NCBI GenBank assembly: GCA_037147375.1 | Contig: JBAWVI010000051.1 | Span: 1-6,930 of the forward strand | Reading direction: 5' to 3' | Source: an archaeon | GTDB taxonomy: Archaea; Iainarchaeota; Iainarchaeia; Iainarchaeales; CSSED10-239 | Length of the DNA: 6,930 bases | Shown here: piece after piece, positions 1 through 6,930 of the stretch | How positions within the stretch are numbered: the stretch's first letter is position 1 | Layout of the letters: each line of letters opens with the position of its first letter | Program-made: the position numbers and the translations under genes | The notes under the pieces: generated by a model | What the model was told of the DNA's origin: nothing | Database searches by the model: none | What the model saw: the letters and a program-made list of their open reading frames with translations, nothing else

Positions 1-71
1 CAAACAAGTTGTTCAAAAGAAAAGAAAACCAGCTTTAATAATAAAAATTTTTCTGAAGAACAAAAAGATAC

Positions 72-81
72 ATAAATTTGA
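72..81 (+). promoter_or_regulatory. ATAAATTTGA motif 7 nt upstream of the ATG at 89 (copy 1 of 2)
   Basis: An exact 10-mer is shared with the minus-strand copy at 1629..1638. Both copies sit immediately 5' of a start codon and neither gene has a Shine-Dalgarno sequence. The extended alignment is ATAAATTTGAaTAaTAT-ATG versus ATAAATTTGAtTAtT-ATG. Confidence 0.3.
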
Positions 82-88
82 ATAATAT

Positions 89-130
89 ATGCTGAACATA
101 CTTGAAGTTATAAATAATAGGAAAAAAGGG
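89..130 (+). other. Predicted class III (prepilin-type) signal peptide; cleavage predicted between G14 (128..130) and Q15 (131..133)
   Basis: R11-K12-K13-G14 is followed by Q15, then the AAITDALFFLTIIVTLSVLLF helix. The assignment rests on the motif alone and no peptidase gene is visible in this window. Confidence 0.5.
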
Positions 131-919
131 CAAGCAGCAATTACTGATGCACTATTCTTTCTAACTATAATTGTAACTTTATCTGTACTATTGTTTAAAT
201 TTTCATCAACCTATGGAGATAGAATTGATCTTGCAACCTCAAACCTTTATTTTAAAGAATATTCAAATTCTGCAATGAAAACTATATTTTATTCAGAAGT
301 TCCACTTGATTATTCTCTTGATGTTGATAATGCAAGCGAGGTTGATTATTTAATGACTTCAATTAAAGCTGATTACTTTAAAGATGGAGTAATTGGAAAA
401 AAACCAGTTGGAGGAAATGATCATCAATATATTAATGAAATATCAGGAGAAGATAGTGATATTGCAAAATATAATCTCTACCACACAATTAAAGCAGTAA
501 TGTATCCTCTTCCAAATTATGATTATATTTTTTATTTATATTATATAGATCGTGAAAGATTTGAATTTGTTTTAATTAAGGTTACTAATTTTGGGGATCC
601 TAATCCATCAGAAAGTGTAAATTACCAAGTAACCTATGATCCAAAAAGTATGAAATCAGAATATTATTTATGTAACCCAATCAATTATTCAGTGGTTAGA
701 AATTTAGTTGCAAAAGTAAATAGAGTATATGCTTCATCAATACCTTTACAGTTTGTTGTAAATAATCAAGATAACCAAATTAATAATACATTTGCAACAT
801 GGGCAGCAACAACAGCAATTAAAGAAAGTGATTTAACAAATTCAGAAACCATGAATTGTAAACTAATTGATGATAAAACAATTGCAGAATATGTGACTAC
901 CAATATTTCAATGGATTAA
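89..919 (+). CDS. Type IV pilin-like protein with archaeal class III signal peptide (276 aa); globular part of unknown function
   Basis: ATG-to-TAA ORF from the track. The N-terminus MLNILEVINNRKKG|QAAITDALFFLTIIVTLSVLLF has a short charged n-region, K-K-G at -3..-1 and Q at +1. A hydrophobic helix of about 22 aa follows. This is the pattern cleaved by archaeal prepilin/preflagellin peptidases (PibD/FlaK/EppA class). Codon usage (AGA, GGA, A/T third positions) matches the neighbouring genes. The rest of the protein matches no family I recognise. Confidence 0.7.
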   Translation: MLNILEVINNRKKGQAAITDALFFLTIIVTLSVLLFKFSSTYGDRIDLATSNLYFKEYSNSAMKTIFYSEVPLDYSLDVDNASEVDYLMTSIKADYFKDGVIGKKPVGGNDHQYINEISGEDSDIAKYNLYHTIKAVMYPLPNYDYIFYLYYIDRERFEFVLIKVTNFGDPNPSESVNYQVTYDPKSMKSEYYLCNPINYSVVRNLVAKVNRVYASSIPLQFVVNNQDNQINNTFATWAATTAIKESDLTNSETMNCKLIDDKTIAEYVTTNISMD

Positions 920-936
920 TTGATAAATATTATGAT

Positions 937-1623
937 TTAAAATTTCAATCCTAAATCATCATCTGAATCTTCATCATCAGATAAATCTAAATCATCTTCT
1001 TGAAGTAGTTTTGAAACATCATTCTTCTTAACTGGCTTTTCTTGTTCTTTTGTTTTCTTAGATGTTTCTTTAGATTTAATTGGTTGTTCCTTTTCTTTAT
1101 CTTTTTCTTTCTTGATATTTTCTAAAACAACCTTTTCTTTTGCTTTGTTTAGTTCTTCTGTTTTATTTTCATTTTCTATTTGAACATATAAATCATCAAC
1201 AACAAGCTTTAACTTATCTCTATCAATTGAACTATCAAATCCTTCATCAGATTCTTTATCTGTGCTTGTGTTTGTTGTTACTGTTCCTGTACTTGCTCTA
1301 TAATGCTTTGTAACAACATTTTTAACAACCTTTTTTTCAACATCAATATTATTTTCTTTTAATTGTTCATAAATTGCATCTGCAATACTATCCATATCTG
1401 GATTAATAACTTCAGACATATTATCAAGAACTTTATTCATAAGTTCTTTCTTATCAAGAGAAATATTTGTTGGAACTACTTTTTCAACCTTTATTTTATC
1501 AGGCTTAACATCTGAATAATCTTCAGAAATATCATCAACTGGGCTTGTGCTATACACTATTTCCCCATCAACAACCTTTCTATAATGTCTTTTTTCTCTT
1601 CTATTTAATGTATTTGCATCCAT
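937..1623 (-). CDS. Highly charged hypothetical protein (228 aa from ATG at 1623): basic N-terminus, K/E-rich low-complexity region, poly-acidic C-terminal tail
   Basis: The track ORF 937..1677 starts at a TTG (plus-strand caa at 1675..1677). The first ATG is plus-strand cat at 1621..1623, giving MDANTLNRREKRHYRK.... The 18 extra codons lie in TATA-like AT-rich sequence and would leave only 41 nt for two divergent promoters. The stop TAA is plus-strand tta at 937..939. I recognise no family. Confidence 0.7.
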   Translation of the reverse strand: MDANTLNRREKRHYRKVVDGEIVYSTSPVDDISEDYSDVKPDKIKVEKVVPTNISLDKKELMNKVLDNMSEVINPDMDSIADAIYEQLKENNIDVEKKVVKNVVTKHYRASTGTVTTNTSTDKESDEGFDSSIDRDKLKLVVDDLYVQIENENKTEELNKAKEKVVLENIKKEKDKEKEQPIKSKETSKKTKEQEKPVKKNDVSKLLQEDDLDLSDDEDSDDDLGLKF

Positions 1624-1718
1624 AATAATCAAATTTATTATATAAAAGGTATATAATAATCCTTTTAAATGTTTCAATTATAAATATAATATATATTTTA
1701 AGGAAAAACTGATATAAA
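1624..1718. promoter_or_regulatory. Divergent AT-rich intergenic region, presumed to hold promoters for the minus-strand gene (start 1623) and the plus-strand membrane-protein/giant-ORF pair (start 1719)
   Basis: This 95-nt spacer sits between divergent start codons. It has several TATA-box-like runs: minus-strand ttattatata and ttttatataa, and plus-strand ttataaatataatatatatttt at about 1678..1700. TATA-like strings are common in DNA this AT-rich, so exact elements cannot be assigned. Confidence 0.4.
1629..1638 (-). promoter_or_regulatory. ATAAATTTGA motif 5 nt upstream of the ATG at 1623 on the minus strand (copy 2 of 2)
   Basis: Plus-strand tcaaatttat is the reverse complement of ATAAATTTGA. 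It occupies the same position relative to the start codon as the copy at 72..81. This also supports 1623 as the real start. Confidence 0.3.
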
Positions 1719-2237
1719 ATGATTGATACTATTTTAAACTACGTTTGGTTTGTTTTTAAGTTATTGGCTTTATGTATTATTTTATCAATACCAATACTTA
1801 TTATAACCTATATATTTAAGGGTTGGTTTGAAAGATCAAAGAAAAGTTTTCTGTTTAAATTGTTTGCAATCACATATTTAATTTCTTTAATAGGGATTTG
1901 CTTACTATATTTTATCCCAACCTTTCAAATAGGCCTAGGAGATGGATACACTTTTTGGAATTATGTTGTATTTATTTTATTACATATTCTTTGGTTTATA
2001 TTTATTAATATCTTAATTACTGGTGTCTTAATCGTATTTGGTTTACTTGCAAAAGGAATATATGATTCTTTTTTAAAGACAAATAAAAATGATAAAAAGA
2101 AGCCAAAAGTAAACGAAGGCATAAATATCAAATATTTATGGATTAGTTTAATTATTACTTGGGTAATTATATTCGTTGTTTACATTATATTCCCAAAATT
2201 AATTGCAATGTTATTATACTTAATTTATTTATCTTAA
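1719..2237 (+). CDS. Small polytopic integral membrane protein (172 aa, about 4-5 TM helices), unknown function
   Basis: ATG-to-TAA ORF from the track. Long hydrophobic stretches (ILNYVWFVFKLLALCIILSIPILIITYIF, FLFKLFAITYLISLIGICLLYFIPTF, FWNYVVFILLHILWFIFINILITGVLIVFGLLA, YLWISLIITWVIIFVVYIIFPKLIAMLLYLIYL) are separated by K-rich loops (KGWFERSKKS, KTNKNDKKKPK). It ends 25 nt before the giant ORF on the same strand, so the two are probably co-transcribed. Confidence 0.85.
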   Translation: MIDTILNYVWFVFKLLALCIILSIPILIITYIFKGWFERSKKSFLFKLFAITYLISLIGICLLYFIPTFQIGLGDGYTFWNYVVFILLHILWFIFINILITGVLIVFGLLAKGIYDSFLKTNKNDKKKPKVNEGINIKYLWISLIITWVIIFVVYIIFPKLIAMLLYLIYLS

Positions 2238-2262
2238 ATATAGAATGGATGATGATTAGAAA

Positions 2263-2334
2263 ATGAAAGACTTTGATATCAATAAAATAGTAACTGTAAT
2301 ATTCCTTTTATTATTTTCAACAAGTGTGTTTGCA
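2263..2334 (+). other. Predicted Sec-type signal peptide (24 aa) of the giant ORF, or alternatively an uncleaved N-terminal signal anchor
   Basis: A short polar n-region (MKDFDINK) precedes a 16-residue hydrophobic core (IVTVIFLLLFSTSVFA). The core ends in a small-residue V-F-A motif before Y25. Confidence 0.6.
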
Positions 2335-5300
2335 TATAATGTTGATTATGATAGACTTAATACAGGAAAAACAAGTACAGTAACTGATAATGAAAAAACA
2401 ATCTTTTTTGCTGATGCTACAACTCCAACTAGCACAATTGCAGAAGATGAACTTGATGATTTTGGAGCAGGATGTTATACTGAAACTCTTCCAAAAGAAA
2501 GTGTTGAGAAAATATGGAATGATATCTTAGTTAAAGGTTTTAGGATTGATAAACTCTCATCAAACATAGAAGCTGATAAAGACAGAGATACTCTTGATAA
2601 AAATCAAGTTTTATTAACTGATGTATCAACTAAAGGTGGAGACGTTGTTGTTAAAAGAGATATGCCTTCACAAATCATGGAACCTCTTGAAACTCCTGGT
2701 ATCCTTGGAGAAGTTTGTTCAGGACCTTATTCATATTCTATTAATTTAACATCAACCTTAAGAGTTGGAAGATGTGCTGATGGAAACACAGCTTGTTATC
2801 TTGCAAGCGATGGTTTATTTAGACAAAATGGAAACCAAGGTTTCTTTAAAGAAATTACAACTGTTGGGCAAGACATGCTTGACATGATTGGTGTTAACAA
2901 AGTTAAAGAGTTTGCAGGAGAAGTTGTAAACTCAGATCTTAATTATGAAACAAATATTGATTTAGGAATGTTTTCTGAAATGTCTGCAGAAGAACTTGCA
3001 GACTTTAAACAAACTCAATTAGTAGATGCAAATAGAACTGAAATAAATATTGAAAAAATGAATCTTGTAATGGATAAAGCAATTAAGAATAGTTACAAGA
3101 CAGATACTTTTAATGCAAGCATGGAAACAACATGCTCTGGAGAAAATTGTTATATAAATGTTTATTCTTTATTTGATAAAGTATTTAATCAATATTTCTC
3201 TGCAGATTTAGTTATTTCCTCTGCATCTCCTCTCTTATGGAAAGCAGCAAGTGGAATATTTGGTGGAGGAACAGGAATCTTAAGAAAATACACAGGAATA
3301 GATAATATTAGTAAAAAAATTGCTGGTAAAGGTAAAGTTTTCAGTCAAGGAGGATTTGTGGATAATCTTCTAAATAATAGAAATAATCCTTTAAGAGCAA
3401 TAAGTAATGCAACTGAACTTAAAACAGCATTAAGAGATATTGATTCATATTCAAGATTACTTGCTGAAAAACAAACAAAAAATCTTAAAAGATTACAAAG
3501 ATATGAGCTTGAACCTGTAATGAATGATTACGTAAAGGTCCTAAAAGATAAAGGACAAATTGATAATTTAAAGAAAGAATTTTTTGAAGGAGGAAAGTTT
3601 GCTAAACTAAGTAAACCACAAAAAAGAATATTCTATGAAATTGCTCAAGATTATCAAGATCAAATTAAAATAACAAGAGCAGTTGTTGCAAGTCTTCAAG
3701 CTGATCCATTATATAAAAGTGGATACGGAAAAGCAAGAGCAGCACTTCTTGAAATTTCAACAGACCCTGCAGGTGGACCAACAAAGAATATGACAGATTT
3801 TTATAGTAGGTTAACAAAAGCAGAATATAAAGCACTTGAAGATAATACAAAACAAATAAATACACTTTCAAAAAATTGGGAAAGCTATACAAATGATCAA
3901 ATAGCTTGGAAAGAAGGACAAGATAAACTAAAATCAATAACTGAAAGAAGATTTTATATACAAGAACCAAATCCAAATACTGGAGTTCTTGAAAATAAAG
4001 AATATTTAGTAAATAAGGTTAAACCAACAACTCAAGGTAATCCAATTAAAATTACTGATTTCCCTGGTGGAGCAAAGGACGCATTTATTCCTGCAGGTGC
4101 TGGTAAAGGAACAGCTCTTGATTCAAAGAATATATTTTCAACACAAGATGTAACTGTTAATTTTGCAGATGGACCAATGACTATTAAAAAAATGGTTCCA
4201 TACATGGAGCAAGCTGATACTGTAAGAGGTGGAGCATTCGGTCACGATCAATTACAAGCATTTAAATCAATGCCAGATATTTATATTGAATACAGACAAA
4301 TTAACACTGGAGTAATGAAGAAAGTTAGAGCAACAGATCTTGTTGAATCAGATATGGATCCAGCTTATAGTTTATATAATTGGTATCCAGTTAAACTAAA
4401 ACCAGCTGATGTTGTAAAATATGGTTATGATCCTGTTGAACTTGGAACTGATTTTACAGTAACAGCAGATTTACGTTTTGGAGATATGGAAATTGTTTCT
4501 GGAAAAGCAACTGAACTTATGCAAAATCAAGGATGGGTTACTGGAAAAGGAATTAACTATATTAATCAAAAAATGAAAGCAATGGATGTAACTAATTTTA
4601 AGAAAAGCCCACTTAACATACTTGCAAATCCACTTAAAGCATATGCATACAATGTTGGTTATTGGCAATTAAAATCTGGCATTACTCATAACCCATTAGG
4701 ACTTGATATGTTCTCAGAGTATTCTATGTATAGAATACCAGACACATACACTGCAGTTATTATACAACCAGGAGAAACAGGAGACGTTTACAAAGATGCA
4801 TATATTGATTTCTTTGCAAATGATGGTTCTGATCAAGGAGATTTATTTGAACAATATTTTAATTCAATGCTATTCTGGATAGTTGCAATTGCAAAAGAAG
4901 GATTATACAATTGGGATGTAGGTGCTGCTGAAAGTGTAAGCAATTGGATAAAATCATTTACTGAAAACCAAATCAGAAGAAGTTCAGTTGATGATATTGT
5001 ACTATTAACTGATGCAGAAAATGGTGGATGTACAAGTGCATGTACTGTTAAAATTGGAGATGGAACTCTTCTTGAAAAAAGAACACTTGATAGTTCTATG
5101 CTTCTTGATGCAAATACATCTAGAGTTGATGATAATTTTATTTCAAATAATCCAGTAAATGTACCTACTATTGAAAAACTAAATATAGTTATGTCTGTTC
5201 CAAATGGAGTTAAGACACCTAACTATGTTCTTGAGAACACAAGTTCTAAGAATCTTAAAGATGAAGGACAAACATTAATTACTTTCTCTCATCATACAAA

Positions 5301-6930
5301 TTATGATGGAACTATTGCAGGAGACACAACTAAAGATTCTGTAAATCTTGCTCAAGCTAAGAGTGATGAAACAACTTGTTCAGCAAAGATTAGAGATCTT
5401 GAATTACTTGGTGTTCCTATTGGTTGGACTGTTAATTGGACAGGAAAAACATATAGAGCAGGAATGGTTTCTGCAGTTGCTAGTAACATAGCTTACTTTG
5501 TGTTATCAGCTCCAAGTCATCGTATGATGATGGGTATGGTTGTTGGAGATATTGTTCCTCAAATGCTAATTATGCCTGAAATAAATAATTGTGTTGATGA
5601 TGAAGAAGGTTATTACACACATATATTTGTTTCTAAGCAAGAAGCTGAAAGAATTGAAGGAGATCCTAAAAATAAAGTAGGAGATATGGTTTCAAAGGGT
5701 GCTGATGGAGTAACTCAAGCATTATCAGGAGTAACTAGTGGAACAAAGTTGAATGATGTTGTTGCTGCAGGAGCTGCAGAAGTTAAAAATCTTGCAGAAA
5801 CTCAATTAAAGGATAATCCAATTGTTCAAGCAAGATTTGAAACAATTAATAGTACAAGTGGATCTCTTGAAGGTAAGCTTTTCTTCTTTGAGCTTGGTAA
5901 ATTATCTACTTGTAGAGCAAGCGGATATAATGATAAAGGTATTGAAAACTTAATTGATTCTAAAACTAAACAAACTCTTGTAATTGATAAAGAAGCTGGA
6001 GAACTTGCACTTATTGATGAAAACGGAAGCAAGAATATTATAATACCATCAGATAAGAAAGACTTTGTAAGATTAATTGCAACTAACTTAGGTATTCCTG
6101 CTAAGGTTATACCACATAAGATAAGTTACATACCTGTTCCTGATGATAATTCTCCTCTTTTCGTAGTTGATGTTTATGGTAACTTAACTATTGAAAACCA
6201 AGATGTTCTATCTTGTTTAAAATCTAATTATAACGCACAAACAGGACTTACTATGGAAGGATCAGTTCTAACTGATTATCTAGGGCCTGTTAAGATGGTA
6301 ACAACAACAAACCCAATTAATCCAACTACTCAATATGATGCTATACCTAAAGGACTTTCAGGAGCAACAGAGATTGTTGCTGAAGGAACTCCTAGAAAGA
6401 TTGCAGAGGGTAGCGGTGCAAAAGCTGTAGTCATGGGTAATCGTATGACTAGATTAAGCCCTGTTCAAGGAAGAACTGAGATCTTAGGACAAAACATAGC
6501 TATCCAGTTTGAAAGAGGCCAGCTTATTTATAGTGGAGAGAAAAACAGTTACATTTTATGGGTTGAGCAAACAGCAGTTATACACCAAAGTGAGGTTGCT
6601 GACCTTAAAACAAAACTTGTAAAATACACTAATGATCAAGGATGTGAAGAGATAGCACTTAACTTTAAAGTAACTCCTATAGAAGGAAATGGAGATGCTA
6701 AAGTAAAAGCTGATAAAATGAATACTGCCCTTGAAAATGTTGGGCCTTTCCAAATGTTTGATACAGCAACTAAATCATTTATTTTTTATACTACTCCTGC
6801 ACCTGAGTGTGAAAAAAGATTAAAAATAATTGATAAATTAACTGGGCAAGTAATAACTGACCAAGCTATTACAGATATTGTTGAAACTCCTGATGGATTG
6901 ATTACTACGAGACCGCTTGCCCTGTCAATG
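2263..6930 (+). CDS. Giant secreted or surface protein, 5' partial (at least 1556 aa, no stop before the window end); unknown family
   Basis: I translated every line codon by codon. The ATG at 2263 follows an in-frame TAG at 2257..2259, and there is no TAA, TAG or TGA in frame +1 up to 6930. Over the same 4.7 kb the track finds nothing longer than 103 codons in any other frame. Codon usage is the same as in the upstream genes. The N-terminus MKDFDINKIVTVIFLLLFSTSVFA|YNV looks like a Sec signal peptide. A weak GGTGAT-like element (gatgat, 2251..2256) lies 6 nt upstream of the ATG. Confidence 0.95.
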   Translation, partial: MKDFDINKIVTVIFLLLFSTSVFAYNVDYDRLNTGKTSTVTDNEKTIFFADATTPTSTIAEDELDDFGAGCYTETLPKESVEKIWNDILVKGFRIDKLSSNIEADKDRDTLDKNQVLLTDVSTKGGDVVVKRDMPSQIMEPLETPGILGEVCSGPYSYSINLTSTLRVGRCADGNTACYLASDGLFRQNGNQGFFKEITTVGQDMLDMIGVNKVKEFAGEVVNSDLNYETNIDLGMFSEMSAEELADFKQTQLVDANRTEINIEKMNLVMDKAIKNSYKTDTFNASMETTCSGENCYINVYSLFDKVFNQYFSADLVISSASPLLWKAASGIFGGGTGILRKYTGIDNISKKIAGKGKVFSQGGFVDNLLNNRNNPLRAISNATELKTALRDIDSYSRLLAEKQTKNLKRLQRYELEPVMNDYVKVLKDKGQIDNLKKEFFEGGKFAKLSKPQKRIFYEIAQDYQDQIKITRAVVASLQADPLYKSGYGKARAALLEISTDPAGGPTKNMTDFYSRLTKAEYKALEDNTKQINTLSKNWESYTNDQIAWKEGQDKLKSITERRFYIQEPNPNTGVLENKEYLVNKVKPTTQGNPIKITDFPGGAKDAFIPAGAGKGTALDSKNIFSTQDVTVNFADGPMTIKKMVPYMEQADTVRGGAFGHDQLQAFKSMPDIYIEYRQINTGVMKKVRATDLVESDMDPAYSLYNWYPVKLKPADVVKYGYDPVELGTDFTVTADLRFGDMEIVSGKATELMQNQGWVTGKGINYINQKMKAMDVTNFKKSPLNILANPLKAYAYNVGYWQLKSGITHNPLGLDMFSEYSMYRIPDTYTAVIIQPGETGDVYKDAYIDFFANDGSDQGDLFEQYFNSMLFWIVAIAKEGLYNWDVGAAESVSNWIKSFTENQIRRSSVDDIVLLTDAENGGCTSACTVKIGDGTLLEKRTLDSSMLLDANTSRVDDNFISNNPVNVPTIEKLNIVMSVPNGVKTPNYVLENTSSKNLKDEGQTLITFSHHTNYDGTIAGDTTKDSVNLAQAKSDETTCSAKIRDLELLGVPIGWTVNWTGKTYRAGMVSAVASNIAYFVLSAPSHRMMMGMVVGDIVPQMLIMPEINNCVDDEEGYYTHIFVSKQEAERIEGDPKNKVGDMVSKGADGVTQALSGVTSGTKLNDVVAAGAAEVKNLAETQLKDNPIVQARFETINSTSGSLEGKLFFFELGKLSTCRASGYNDKGIENLIDSKTKQTLVIDKEAGELALIDENGSKNIIIPSDKKDFVRLIATNLGIPAKVIPHKISYIPVPDDNSPLFVVDVYGNLTIENQDVLSCLKSNYNAQTGLTMEGSVLTDYLGPVKMVTTTNPINPTTQYDAIPKGLSGATEIVAEGTPRKIAEGSGAKAVVMGNRMTRLSPVQGRTEILGQNIAIQFERGQLIYSGEKNSYILWVEQTAVIHQSEVADLKTKLVKYTNDQGCEEIALNFKVTPIEGNGDAKVKADKMNTALENVGPFQMFDTATKSFIFYTTPAPECEKRLKIIDKLTGQVITDQAITDIVETPDGLITTRPLALSM

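Follow-up and report, generated by a model that had tools for sequence, protein, structure and literature searches.

Large proteins described as 'S-layer-like' have been predicted in archaeal type IV pilus (T4P) loci, where they carry a signal peptide, a C-terminal transmembrane (TM) helix and conserved cysteines (Makarova, Koonin & Albers 2016, PMC4858521); examples are arCOG05471 in Thermoproteales clade 4B and the PilA-system loci of Euryarchaeota. In DPANN archaea, T4P islands have been depicted that hold an ATPase, TadB/TadC, 'specific surface proteins' and unrecognizable pilins (Makarova, Wolf & Koonin 2019, PMC6393860, Fig. 2A). Large secreted proteins encoded with pilins also occur in methanococcal Epd-type loci, whose PilY1 and DUF2341 adhesins are proposed to act with the filament (PMC4858521). 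For its part, SLP_Mh of Ca. Micrarchaeum harzensis is an experimentally supported S-layer protein (101 kDa, PF05123, glycosylated; 10.1101/2021.04.28.441871). Here, we analyze a giant open reading frame (ORF) at positions 2263-6930 (+ strand) of contig JBAWVI010000051.1 (assembly GCA_037147375.1) from the Iainarchaeota; the whole stretch analyzed, 6,930 nucleotides (nt) long, is referred to as the window. On balance, we favor the view that the product is a membrane-anchored, disulfide-stabilized, probably glycosylated envelope component of a Tad/type IV pilus-like machine.

The gene cluster to which the giant gene belongs is of the same kind as the DPANN islands of PMC6393860, with an ATPase, TadB/TadC-like proteins, surface proteins and signal-peptide proteins beyond the standard pilin models; the giant protein was not analyzed there as a family. 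With the 'S-layer-like' class of PMC4858521 it shares the T4P-locus setting, the large size, the signal peptide, the single C-terminal TM helix and the conserved cysteines, and in both cases disulfides and function are predictions. It differs from that class in being restricted to Iainarchaeota and remote Micrarchaeota-labelled relatives, in lying at the large end of the size range (∼1,250-1,770 amino acids [aa] across the family), and in possessing a distinct juxtamembrane motif, [IL]P[SL]xP[EQ], and a gene for a small TM protein as its constant partner. An earlier note, made from the letters of the window, had presented the product as a novel giant protein of no recognizable family. The second half of that claim holds, while the novelty is narrower than stated, a similar architecture having already been described in silico in archaeal T4P loci (PMC4858521). 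A literature search found no description of this particular gene cluster, and papers on DPANN cryo-electron tomography and cultivation held no relevant content.

Coding status and extent of the giant gene

Frame +1 is open from the ATG at 2263 to the end of the window (1,556 codons), and re-translation found zero stops, as the earlier note had claimed. Over the same span the other five frames contain 59-242 stops and every other ORF has at most 103 aa, in agreement with the earlier statement that no other frame stays open beyond 103 codons. The region has 32% G+C. With a composition-based stop probability of 0.085 per codon, the log10 probability of such an open frame is −59.8 (∼1e-60), and the longest open run in shuffled sequence (n = 200) was 131 codons. 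The giant ORF is a real gene. There is practically no chance that AT-rich sequence or faulty assembly produced it as a non-coding or chimeric artefact. Such an origin would be in keeping with the two window ends, the first ∼45 nt and the last ∼27 nt, which have no match in homologous contigs; against it stand the open-frame probability and the existence of full-length homologs, at 27% to 99% identity and in more than 80 independent assemblies, with cysteines, motifs and ends conserved. This explanation was ruled out for the body of the ORF, and suspicion attaches to the terminal ∼27 nt only.

The ORF is truncated in the window. The stop, for which the earlier note had proposed extending the contig downstream, is supplied by contig L001 (NCBI assembly GCA_964445425.1), which encodes a full protein of 1,688 aa (P0001) that is ∼99% identical to the window product and was used as the reference. 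Window and contig L001 are 98.95% identical, the match covering bases 46-6903 only; bases 1 to ∼45 and 6904-6930 (∼27 nt) do not match contig L001, with which L002 agrees there. The 3′ end of the window is GC-rich (GACCGCTTGCCCTGTCAATG) in a genome of ∼30% GC, and the last ∼9 codons as read (…ITTRPLALSM) stand in place of an invariant family motif (…IVTTADG…). These final ∼9 codons are suspect because the terminal ∼27 nt disagree with L001 and L002, which match each other. Bases 6904-6930 and the first ∼45 nt are thus probably adapter or assembly-end artefacts, and the last ∼9 codons are probably not authentic.

A family spanning the Iainarchaeota

A word-indexed search recovered 29 homologous proteins. 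Scanning of GTDB species genomes found a relative in at least 99 genomes, the named ones all being Candidatus Iainarchaeum, Diapherotrites or 'archaeon'; the carriers include the complete genome CP045477.1 (Ca. Forterrea multitransposorum). An exhaustive HMMER search of 1.84 billion representatives returned 211 clusters (50% identity) at E ≤1e-3, with 113 at E ≤1e-30. Some proteins in the distant tail carry the label Candidatus Micrarchaeota; all are annotated as 'hypothetical' and none has a Pfam domain. When the homolog search was run with the Micrarchaeota-type subgroup, it returned close relatives only and no cultured organism. The gene is near-universal and apparently single-copy in the phylum. 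The giant protein is therefore a member of a large family spanning the Iainarchaeota (DPANN), not an orphan.

The earlier note had spoken of small-genome archaea, which agrees with the DPANN lineage of the source. Its suggestion to search metagenome-assembled genomes (MAGs) for homologs yielded relatives throughout the phylum; the note itself had missed the large family, the C-terminal TM anchor and the prepilin-like ORF at 89-919.

Architecture of the giant protein

P0001 consists of a Sec signal peptide, an ectodomain of ∼1,630 aa, one C-terminal TM helix and a poly-Lys tail (regions in Table 1). As read from the sequence, the charged, hydrophobic and V-x-A segments of a Sec/signal peptidase I signal can all be recognized at the N-terminus, MKDFDINKIVTVIFLLLFSTSVFA↓YN, so that the Sec-type peptide proposed in the earlier note stands as a prediction; the VFA↓Y/S cleavage site, predicted from sequence features, is common to 25/25 aligned homologs. 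The ∼140 aa beyond the window comprise a G/S-rich linker, IPLTPE, a hydrophobic helix and KKKKKK. Residues 1654-1684 of P0001 have a Kyte-Doolittle hydropathy of 2.53 and are followed by KKKKKK (family median 2.39, minimum 1.9), and the C-terminal anchor and basic tail are present in all 25 aligned homologs and in remote relatives. Since only the N-terminal signal and the C-terminal helix reach TM strength, the internal hydrophobic stretches being lower across the family, the giant product is predicted to be a type I membrane protein with a single C-terminal anchor.

The juxtamembrane motif followed by the TM helix and K/R was found in 76/87 giant ORFs and in 0/2,339 neighboring ORFs. In layout, motif, TM helix and basic tail recall the tripartite C-terminal signal of sortase or archaeosortase substrates; no known model matches it, the NCBIfam sorting-signal models (PGF-CTERM and similar) giving no match to isolated C-termini or full proteins, and the neighboring ORFs searched do not carry the motif.

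Each of the 14 reference cysteines is invariant or at least 90% conserved among the 25 aligned homologs, which have 14-17 cysteines each. N-x-S/T sequons number 11-24 per homolog, with three conserved positions. Exact counts in the window product, 14 cysteines and 12 sequons, match the 14 and 'about a dozen' estimated earlier. The N-terminal domain is marked by ASMETTCSGENCYINxYSLFDKMFNQYFSAD, and the central region by DAYIDFFANDGSDQGDLF, FSHHTDYDGT and CVDDEEGYYxH. Self-BLAST returned the identity match alone, confirming the absence of tandem repeats reported earlier, and no Pfam repeat model matched; the protein thus does not have the internal repeats of a repeat adhesin. Conservation reaches its peak near the membrane and is low in the middle of the protein, a distribution that would suit a base in contact with a machine better than the tip of a diversifying adhesin.

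No known family was recognized. Searches with Pfam, NCBIfam and PHROGs against the giant protein and its neighbors gave noise only, and neither the sequence nor the full-family profile matched the PDB (best E = 1.1). AlphaFold2 (AF2) models, built in two halves from a 30-sequence alignment, had a mean predicted local distance difference test (pLDDT) value of 55 for the N-terminal half and 67 for the C-terminal half, with low confidence in the Cys-rich residues 25-345 and the motif-rich residues 800-1125. With Foldseek against the PDB, the best result for the N-terminal half was FlgL (E = 0.048, TM-score ≤0.18), treated as a non-match. The C-terminal half retrieved phage nozzle, WD40, tricorn, teneurin-like and Tc-toxin structures (TM-score ≤0.18, root mean square deviation >20 Å), again non-matches, so that it shows only a low-scoring beta-propeller or beta-repeat resemblance. 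The failure of Pfam, NCBIfam, PHROGs, the PDB and Foldseek to place the protein agrees with what had been noted from the sequence. Viral structures in BFVD were likewise non-matches (TM-score ≤0.2, root mean square deviation >20 Å). A viral origin was considered and dropped, there being no PHROG match and the flanks holding cellular housekeeping genes (tRNA synthetase, thymidylate synthase).

The conserved polar motifs of the central region raise the possibility of a cell-surface enzyme, such as a glycan- or peptide-processing hydrolase, with an active site formed from FSHHTDYDGT, CVDDEEGYYxH and DAYIDFFANDGSDQGD. Across 25-30% identity, H1011, D1113, E1116, H1121, D846, D850 and further polar residues vary little or not at all, as would be expected of such a site. 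However, Pfam, NCBIfam, PDB sequence and profile searches and Foldseek returned no enzyme family, and the sequence contains no HExxH, no P-loop and no other catalytic signature, as already remarked in the earlier note. Ca2+ binding or a structural role would explain the motifs equally well, and the region is modelled at low confidence. We regard an enzymatic role as very improbable.

A pilus-like cluster ends with the giant gene

Hidden Markov models (HMMs) were built for each gene of the cluster and mapped onto the ORFs of 85 loci; denominators below are the loci with enough flanking sequence. The order was the same in all such loci: gene A (∼750 aa, polytopic), about nine small genes, gene J on the reverse strand, gene K and, last, the giant gene. 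Loci L001 to L008 all show this order. At least two pilin families were found upstream of the giant gene in 48/52 loci, and at least five in 36/42. Gene K lies at most 400 nt upstream of the giant gene in 52/62 loci, which answers the question, raised in the earlier note, of whether the small membrane gene upstream is syntenic with homologs of the giant gene. Directly downstream, in convergent orientation, a T2SSF-X-T2SSE module was present in 33/51 loci. It encodes a T2SSE ATPase and two T2SSF platform proteins of ∼250-300 aa, and is Tad-like.

The association extends to remote members of the family, pilin synteny persisting down to ∼25-30% identity of the giant protein. Locus L090 contains an intein-containing T2SSE gene, gene A, pilin families D to I, a K-like gene and the giant gene, and in L091 the giant gene lies between pilins and a T2SSF-T2SSF-(Fer4-)T2SSE module. 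The Micrarchaeota-labelled contigs, which are short, keep a local triad formed by a reverse-strand zinc-ribbon protein, a TM protein of 82-85 aa and the giant gene.

Six or seven small proteins of the cluster start with [KR]-[GA]-Q followed by a hydrophobic helix (e.g., KKGQAFSTFQLLIAAVV, TRGQAESNTLYMLLIVV, GKGQVSAPFEILVAVIV and KKGQAAITDALFFLTIIV). These N-termini follow the archaeal class III (prepilin) pattern, and for each gene separately they are kept in loci whose giant proteins are as little as 27% identical. The class III signal, a [KR]-G/A cleavage motif followed by a hydrophobic helix, is not found in the giant protein, which has the Sec V-x-A site. By its signal, then, the giant protein is not a pilin; a Sec rather than a class III signal, together with anchorage at the C-terminus, sets it apart from filament subunits and makes a role as tip adhesin unlikely.

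The cluster resembles the bacterial Tad/Flp system (TadA, TadB/TadC, Flp, TadE/F) in having T2SSE followed by two T2SSF proteins of ∼250-300 aa, a Flp-sized prepilin of 65-76 aa and minor pilin-like proteins. It differs from it in the absence of a secretin or outer-membrane part, in an extra platform-like protein of ∼750 aa that has its own ATPase, and in the giant anchored protein, which has no Tad counterpart. Similarly, the giant protein is like the PilY1/DUF2341 adhesins in being large, secreted (by prediction) and encoded with pilins. Unlike them, it has no DUF2341, PilY1 or vWA domain by Pfam, either in the giant protein itself or in any of its homologs, and its C-terminal TM anchor does not fit a location at the pilus tip.

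The S-layer and partner contact as alternatives

The giant protein might instead be the principal S-layer lattice protein of the Iainarchaeota, its proximity to pilins being incidental. Its size, Sec signal, C-terminal TM anchor and 11-24 sequons per protein would suit such a role, as would its near-universal, apparently single-copy occurrence. C-terminally anchored glycoprotein S-layers are, moreover, common in archaea. Yet no S-layer domain (e.g., PF05123, TIGR01564/01567) or PGF-CTERM-type signal was found in the window protein, P0001, P0021, P0025 or the isolated C-termini, and the giant gene ends a multigene cluster rather than standing as a solitary, highly expressed gene. Pilin synteny down to such low identity is also hard to call incidental.

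SLP_Mh provides the closest comparison for this idea. Like the giant protein (by prediction), it is an envelope protein that is secreted and glycosylated, and its lineage is a related one within DPANN; it differs in having almost no sulfur-containing residues, as is typical of S-layer proteins (10.1101/2021.04.28.441871), and no C-terminal TM helix, while the giant protein lacks PF05123 and has 14 invariant cysteines and a C-terminal anchor. The idea of a main S-layer protein was down-weighted because SLP_Mh, a different protein of the PF05123 type, serves in the sister lineage Micrarchaeota, and MAGs labelled as such carry relatives of the giant protein too. Overall, we consider this alternative unlikely.

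A second alternative is a device with which a symbiotic DPANN archaeon would engage a host or partner cell, whether by adhesion or by perturbing or fusing membranes; the pili would gather cells and the giant protein would make the contact or bridge. It would be in accordance with the DPANN lineage, with the giant anchored ectodomain and with the lack of matches to known folds. A further point in its favor is a conserved pair of Gly/Ala-rich, moderately hydrophobic helices flanked by invariant cysteines at residues ∼1066-1108. The hydropathy of this pair (median of the 19-aa maximum, 1.35) is, however, below TM or fusion-peptide strength, and the AF2 models are poor there. Foldseek matches to viral fusion or spike proteins were non-significant (probability ≤0.06), the conservation pattern shows no hypervariable receptor-binding tip, the N-terminal domain is conserved, and we found no indication here that Iainarchaeota have hosts. 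This possibility seems quite unlikely to us.

Neighboring genes

The 276-aa ORF at the start of the window belongs to pilin family 'I', which its own HMM recovered upstream of the giant gene across loci. Its N-terminus, [KR][GA]Q-AAITDALFFL, is kept in L001, L002, L003, L005, L007 and L008, and Pfam gave no match to it.

A very short prepilin was found at L001 4607-4822, with orthologs at L002 5642-5857, L007 1968-2132 and L090 4923-5123. It has 54-76 aa (mature ∼45-55 aa), the core TLYMLLIVxIVAxxLIAVVKPMF and a weak Pfam Flp_Fap match (E = 0.098). Judged from these features, it is the best candidate for a major, Flp-like filament subunit. For its part, the QAFSTF-type pilin (family D) shows two or three tandem duplications in L003 (5049-5612 region), L010, L019, L022, L024, L026 and L036; tandem duplication is typical of major or variable pilins. 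In L001, a toxin-antitoxin pair (DUF3368 PIN-like plus UPF0175; 4967-5850) interrupts the pilin operon midway, separating the 71-aa pilin gene from the one that follows. Only L001, the window's closest relative, was seen to carry the insertion, which L002, L003, L005 and L008 lack.

Gene A gave sub-threshold matches to PF00482 (T2SSF) in 3/6 orthologs (best E = 0.0019), the T2SSF signal being 'faint' on the L090 and L091 orthologs, and its profile had no match in the PDB. It lies directly beside a T2SSE ATPase gene in five loci (L034, L037, L046, L085 and L090). In L090 (1-1943), the ATPase beside gene A harbors an intein that contains a LAGLIDADG homing endonuclease (Pfam Intein_splicing, LAGLIDADG_3). 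In L091 (16278-17825), a fusion protein joins the T2SSE ATPase to ferredoxin-type 4Fe-4S domains (PF00437 together with Fer4 families), and in the window clade a stand-alone Fer4 gene of ∼61-64 aa lies divergently beside gene A (L002, L003, L005 and L008). There may be a recurring link between ferredoxins and the pilus motor. An unexpected neighbor of the pilus cluster in two remote loci is a PAC2 (proteasome assembly chaperone-like) gene between the giant gene and the T2SSF-T2SSE module (L007 12021-12767; L091 14083-14820).

In the window clade, J is acidic and Lys-rich with a tail ending in DDLGLKF, and its counterparts in deeper lineages end in a CPxCG…VTVKKK zinc ribbon. A basic N-terminal motif, RRE[KR]RxYR..G.IVY, is conserved, and Pfam gave no match. 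Its conserved place, immediately upstream of the K-giant pair, makes J a candidate regulator or cytoplasmic adaptor. Gene K is likely a co-transcribed partner of the giant gene, since its stop codon lies so close to the giant ATG (Table 1), and the Micrarchaeota-labelled loci keep a K-like gene of 82-85 aa.

Table 1. Features of the window and counterparts of gene J in other loci
Feature	Position	Strand	Observations
Prepilin-like protein, family 'I', 276 aa	89..919	+	Class III signal MLNILEVINNRKKGQ↓AAITDALFFLTIIVTLSVLLF: basic residue, G, Q, then hydrophobic helix
Gene J; 228 aa when read from its conserved start, MDANTLNRREKRH; longest ORF to 1677	937..1623	-	Flanked by the pilin genes and the K-giant pair, a conserved arrangement
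Small multi-TM protein K, 172 aa	1719..2237	+	Stop 25 nt before the giant ATG; purine-rich GGATGATGA in the spacer
Sec-type signal peptide, aa 1-24, predicted cleavage VFA↓YN	2263..2334	+	Kyte-Doolittle 2.08; kept in all 25 aligned homologs
N-terminal Cys-rich conserved domain, aa ∼25-345	2335..3297	+	Six invariant or near-invariant Cys; column conservation 0.57; AF2 pLDDT <50
Variable middle: helical bundle, aa ∼370-545, then beta domain, aa ∼560-755	3370..4527	+	pLDDT 70-91; conservation 0.40-0.41, lowest in the protein
Central motif-rich region, aa ∼800-1125	4660..5637	+	Conservation 0.59; low to moderate pLDDT; five invariant Cys
Start of beta-rich membrane-proximal region, P0001 aa 1229-1609; window ends inside	5944..6903	+	pLDDT 85-93; conservation 0.68, highest
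Window-end sequence unlike homologous contigs	6904..6930		Probable assembly-end artefact, by comparison with L001 and L002
J counterparts	L007 4900-5673; L090 7961-9175; L092 26-1162; L088 411-1760		

Proposed role and significance

The reading of the giant protein as a pilus-linked envelope component is favored because the set of pilins co-occurs with it over a long evolutionary distance, and because of the small membrane partner, the juxtamembrane conservation peak and the disulfide and glycan features. Among the roles listed in the earlier note, the 'S-layer-like envelope component' comes closest to it; the pilus-like cluster context was missed there.

Several observations weigh against this reading. 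The link to the pilus is drawn from gene neighborhood, and the window's own clade has no adjacent ATPase/T2SSF module: this module, which adjoins the cluster in deeper lineages, has moved away there, and a class II aminoacyl-tRNA synthetase gene follows the giant gene instead. The reverse-strand gene J splits the cluster and, because of this interruption, the giant gene and K probably form a transcription unit of their own. No prepilin peptidase was located. The T2SSF match of gene A is below threshold, and its hhalign alignment with true T2SSF covers 42 columns at 3% probability. The likeness to the class of PMC4858521 is one of architecture. Finally, AF2 was only partly confident, so that the lack of a structural match would say little about the unmodelled N-terminal and central regions.

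In the proposed mechanism, the Sec signal peptide would be removed after export, and the ∼1,630-residue ectodomain would be displayed outside the cell, with about seven disulfides and probably N-glycosylated. The single C-terminal helix and the poly-basic cytoplasmic tail would hold the protein in the membrane. There it may act with the pilus as a scaffold or collar, bearing or anchoring the filament on its way through the pseudoperiplasm and the surface layer; equally, it may be a surface module deployed alongside the pili. The machine would comprise a T2SSF-like platform, six or seven prepilin-like proteins, including the 65-76-aa Flp-sized candidate major pilin, and the multi-TM partner, and the ancestral cluster would have had two ATPase/platform motor modules. 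A bolder version, which we put forward as a tentative and rather unlikely possibility, is that the protein is an extracellular structural module of the pilus machine unlike anything known, forming with K an envelope-spanning collar or conduit through which a Tad-like filament would cross the pseudoperiplasm and S-layer, or else a device for contact with, or bridging to, a partner cell that the pilus would deliver in DPANN symbioses, in either case with folds absent from the PDB.

The giant protein represents an uncharacterized, phylum-wide family whose type of architecture earlier in silico work had predicted in archaeal T4P loci. Its gene of ∼5 kb is kept, tied to a pilus cluster, in essentially every sampled genome of organisms whose genomes are tiny, and such retention points to an important envelope function. 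The analysis provides a profile and a hallmark juxtamembrane motif for this unnamed family, and about a dozen 'hypothetical' genes per genome become annotatable as a pilus cluster. We know of no extracellular machine parts in archaeal type IV pilus-like systems. The function of the giant protein, once defined, would show how archaeal T4P-like filaments are integrated into the cell envelope, and it may bear on the attachment of DPANN archaea to surfaces or partners.

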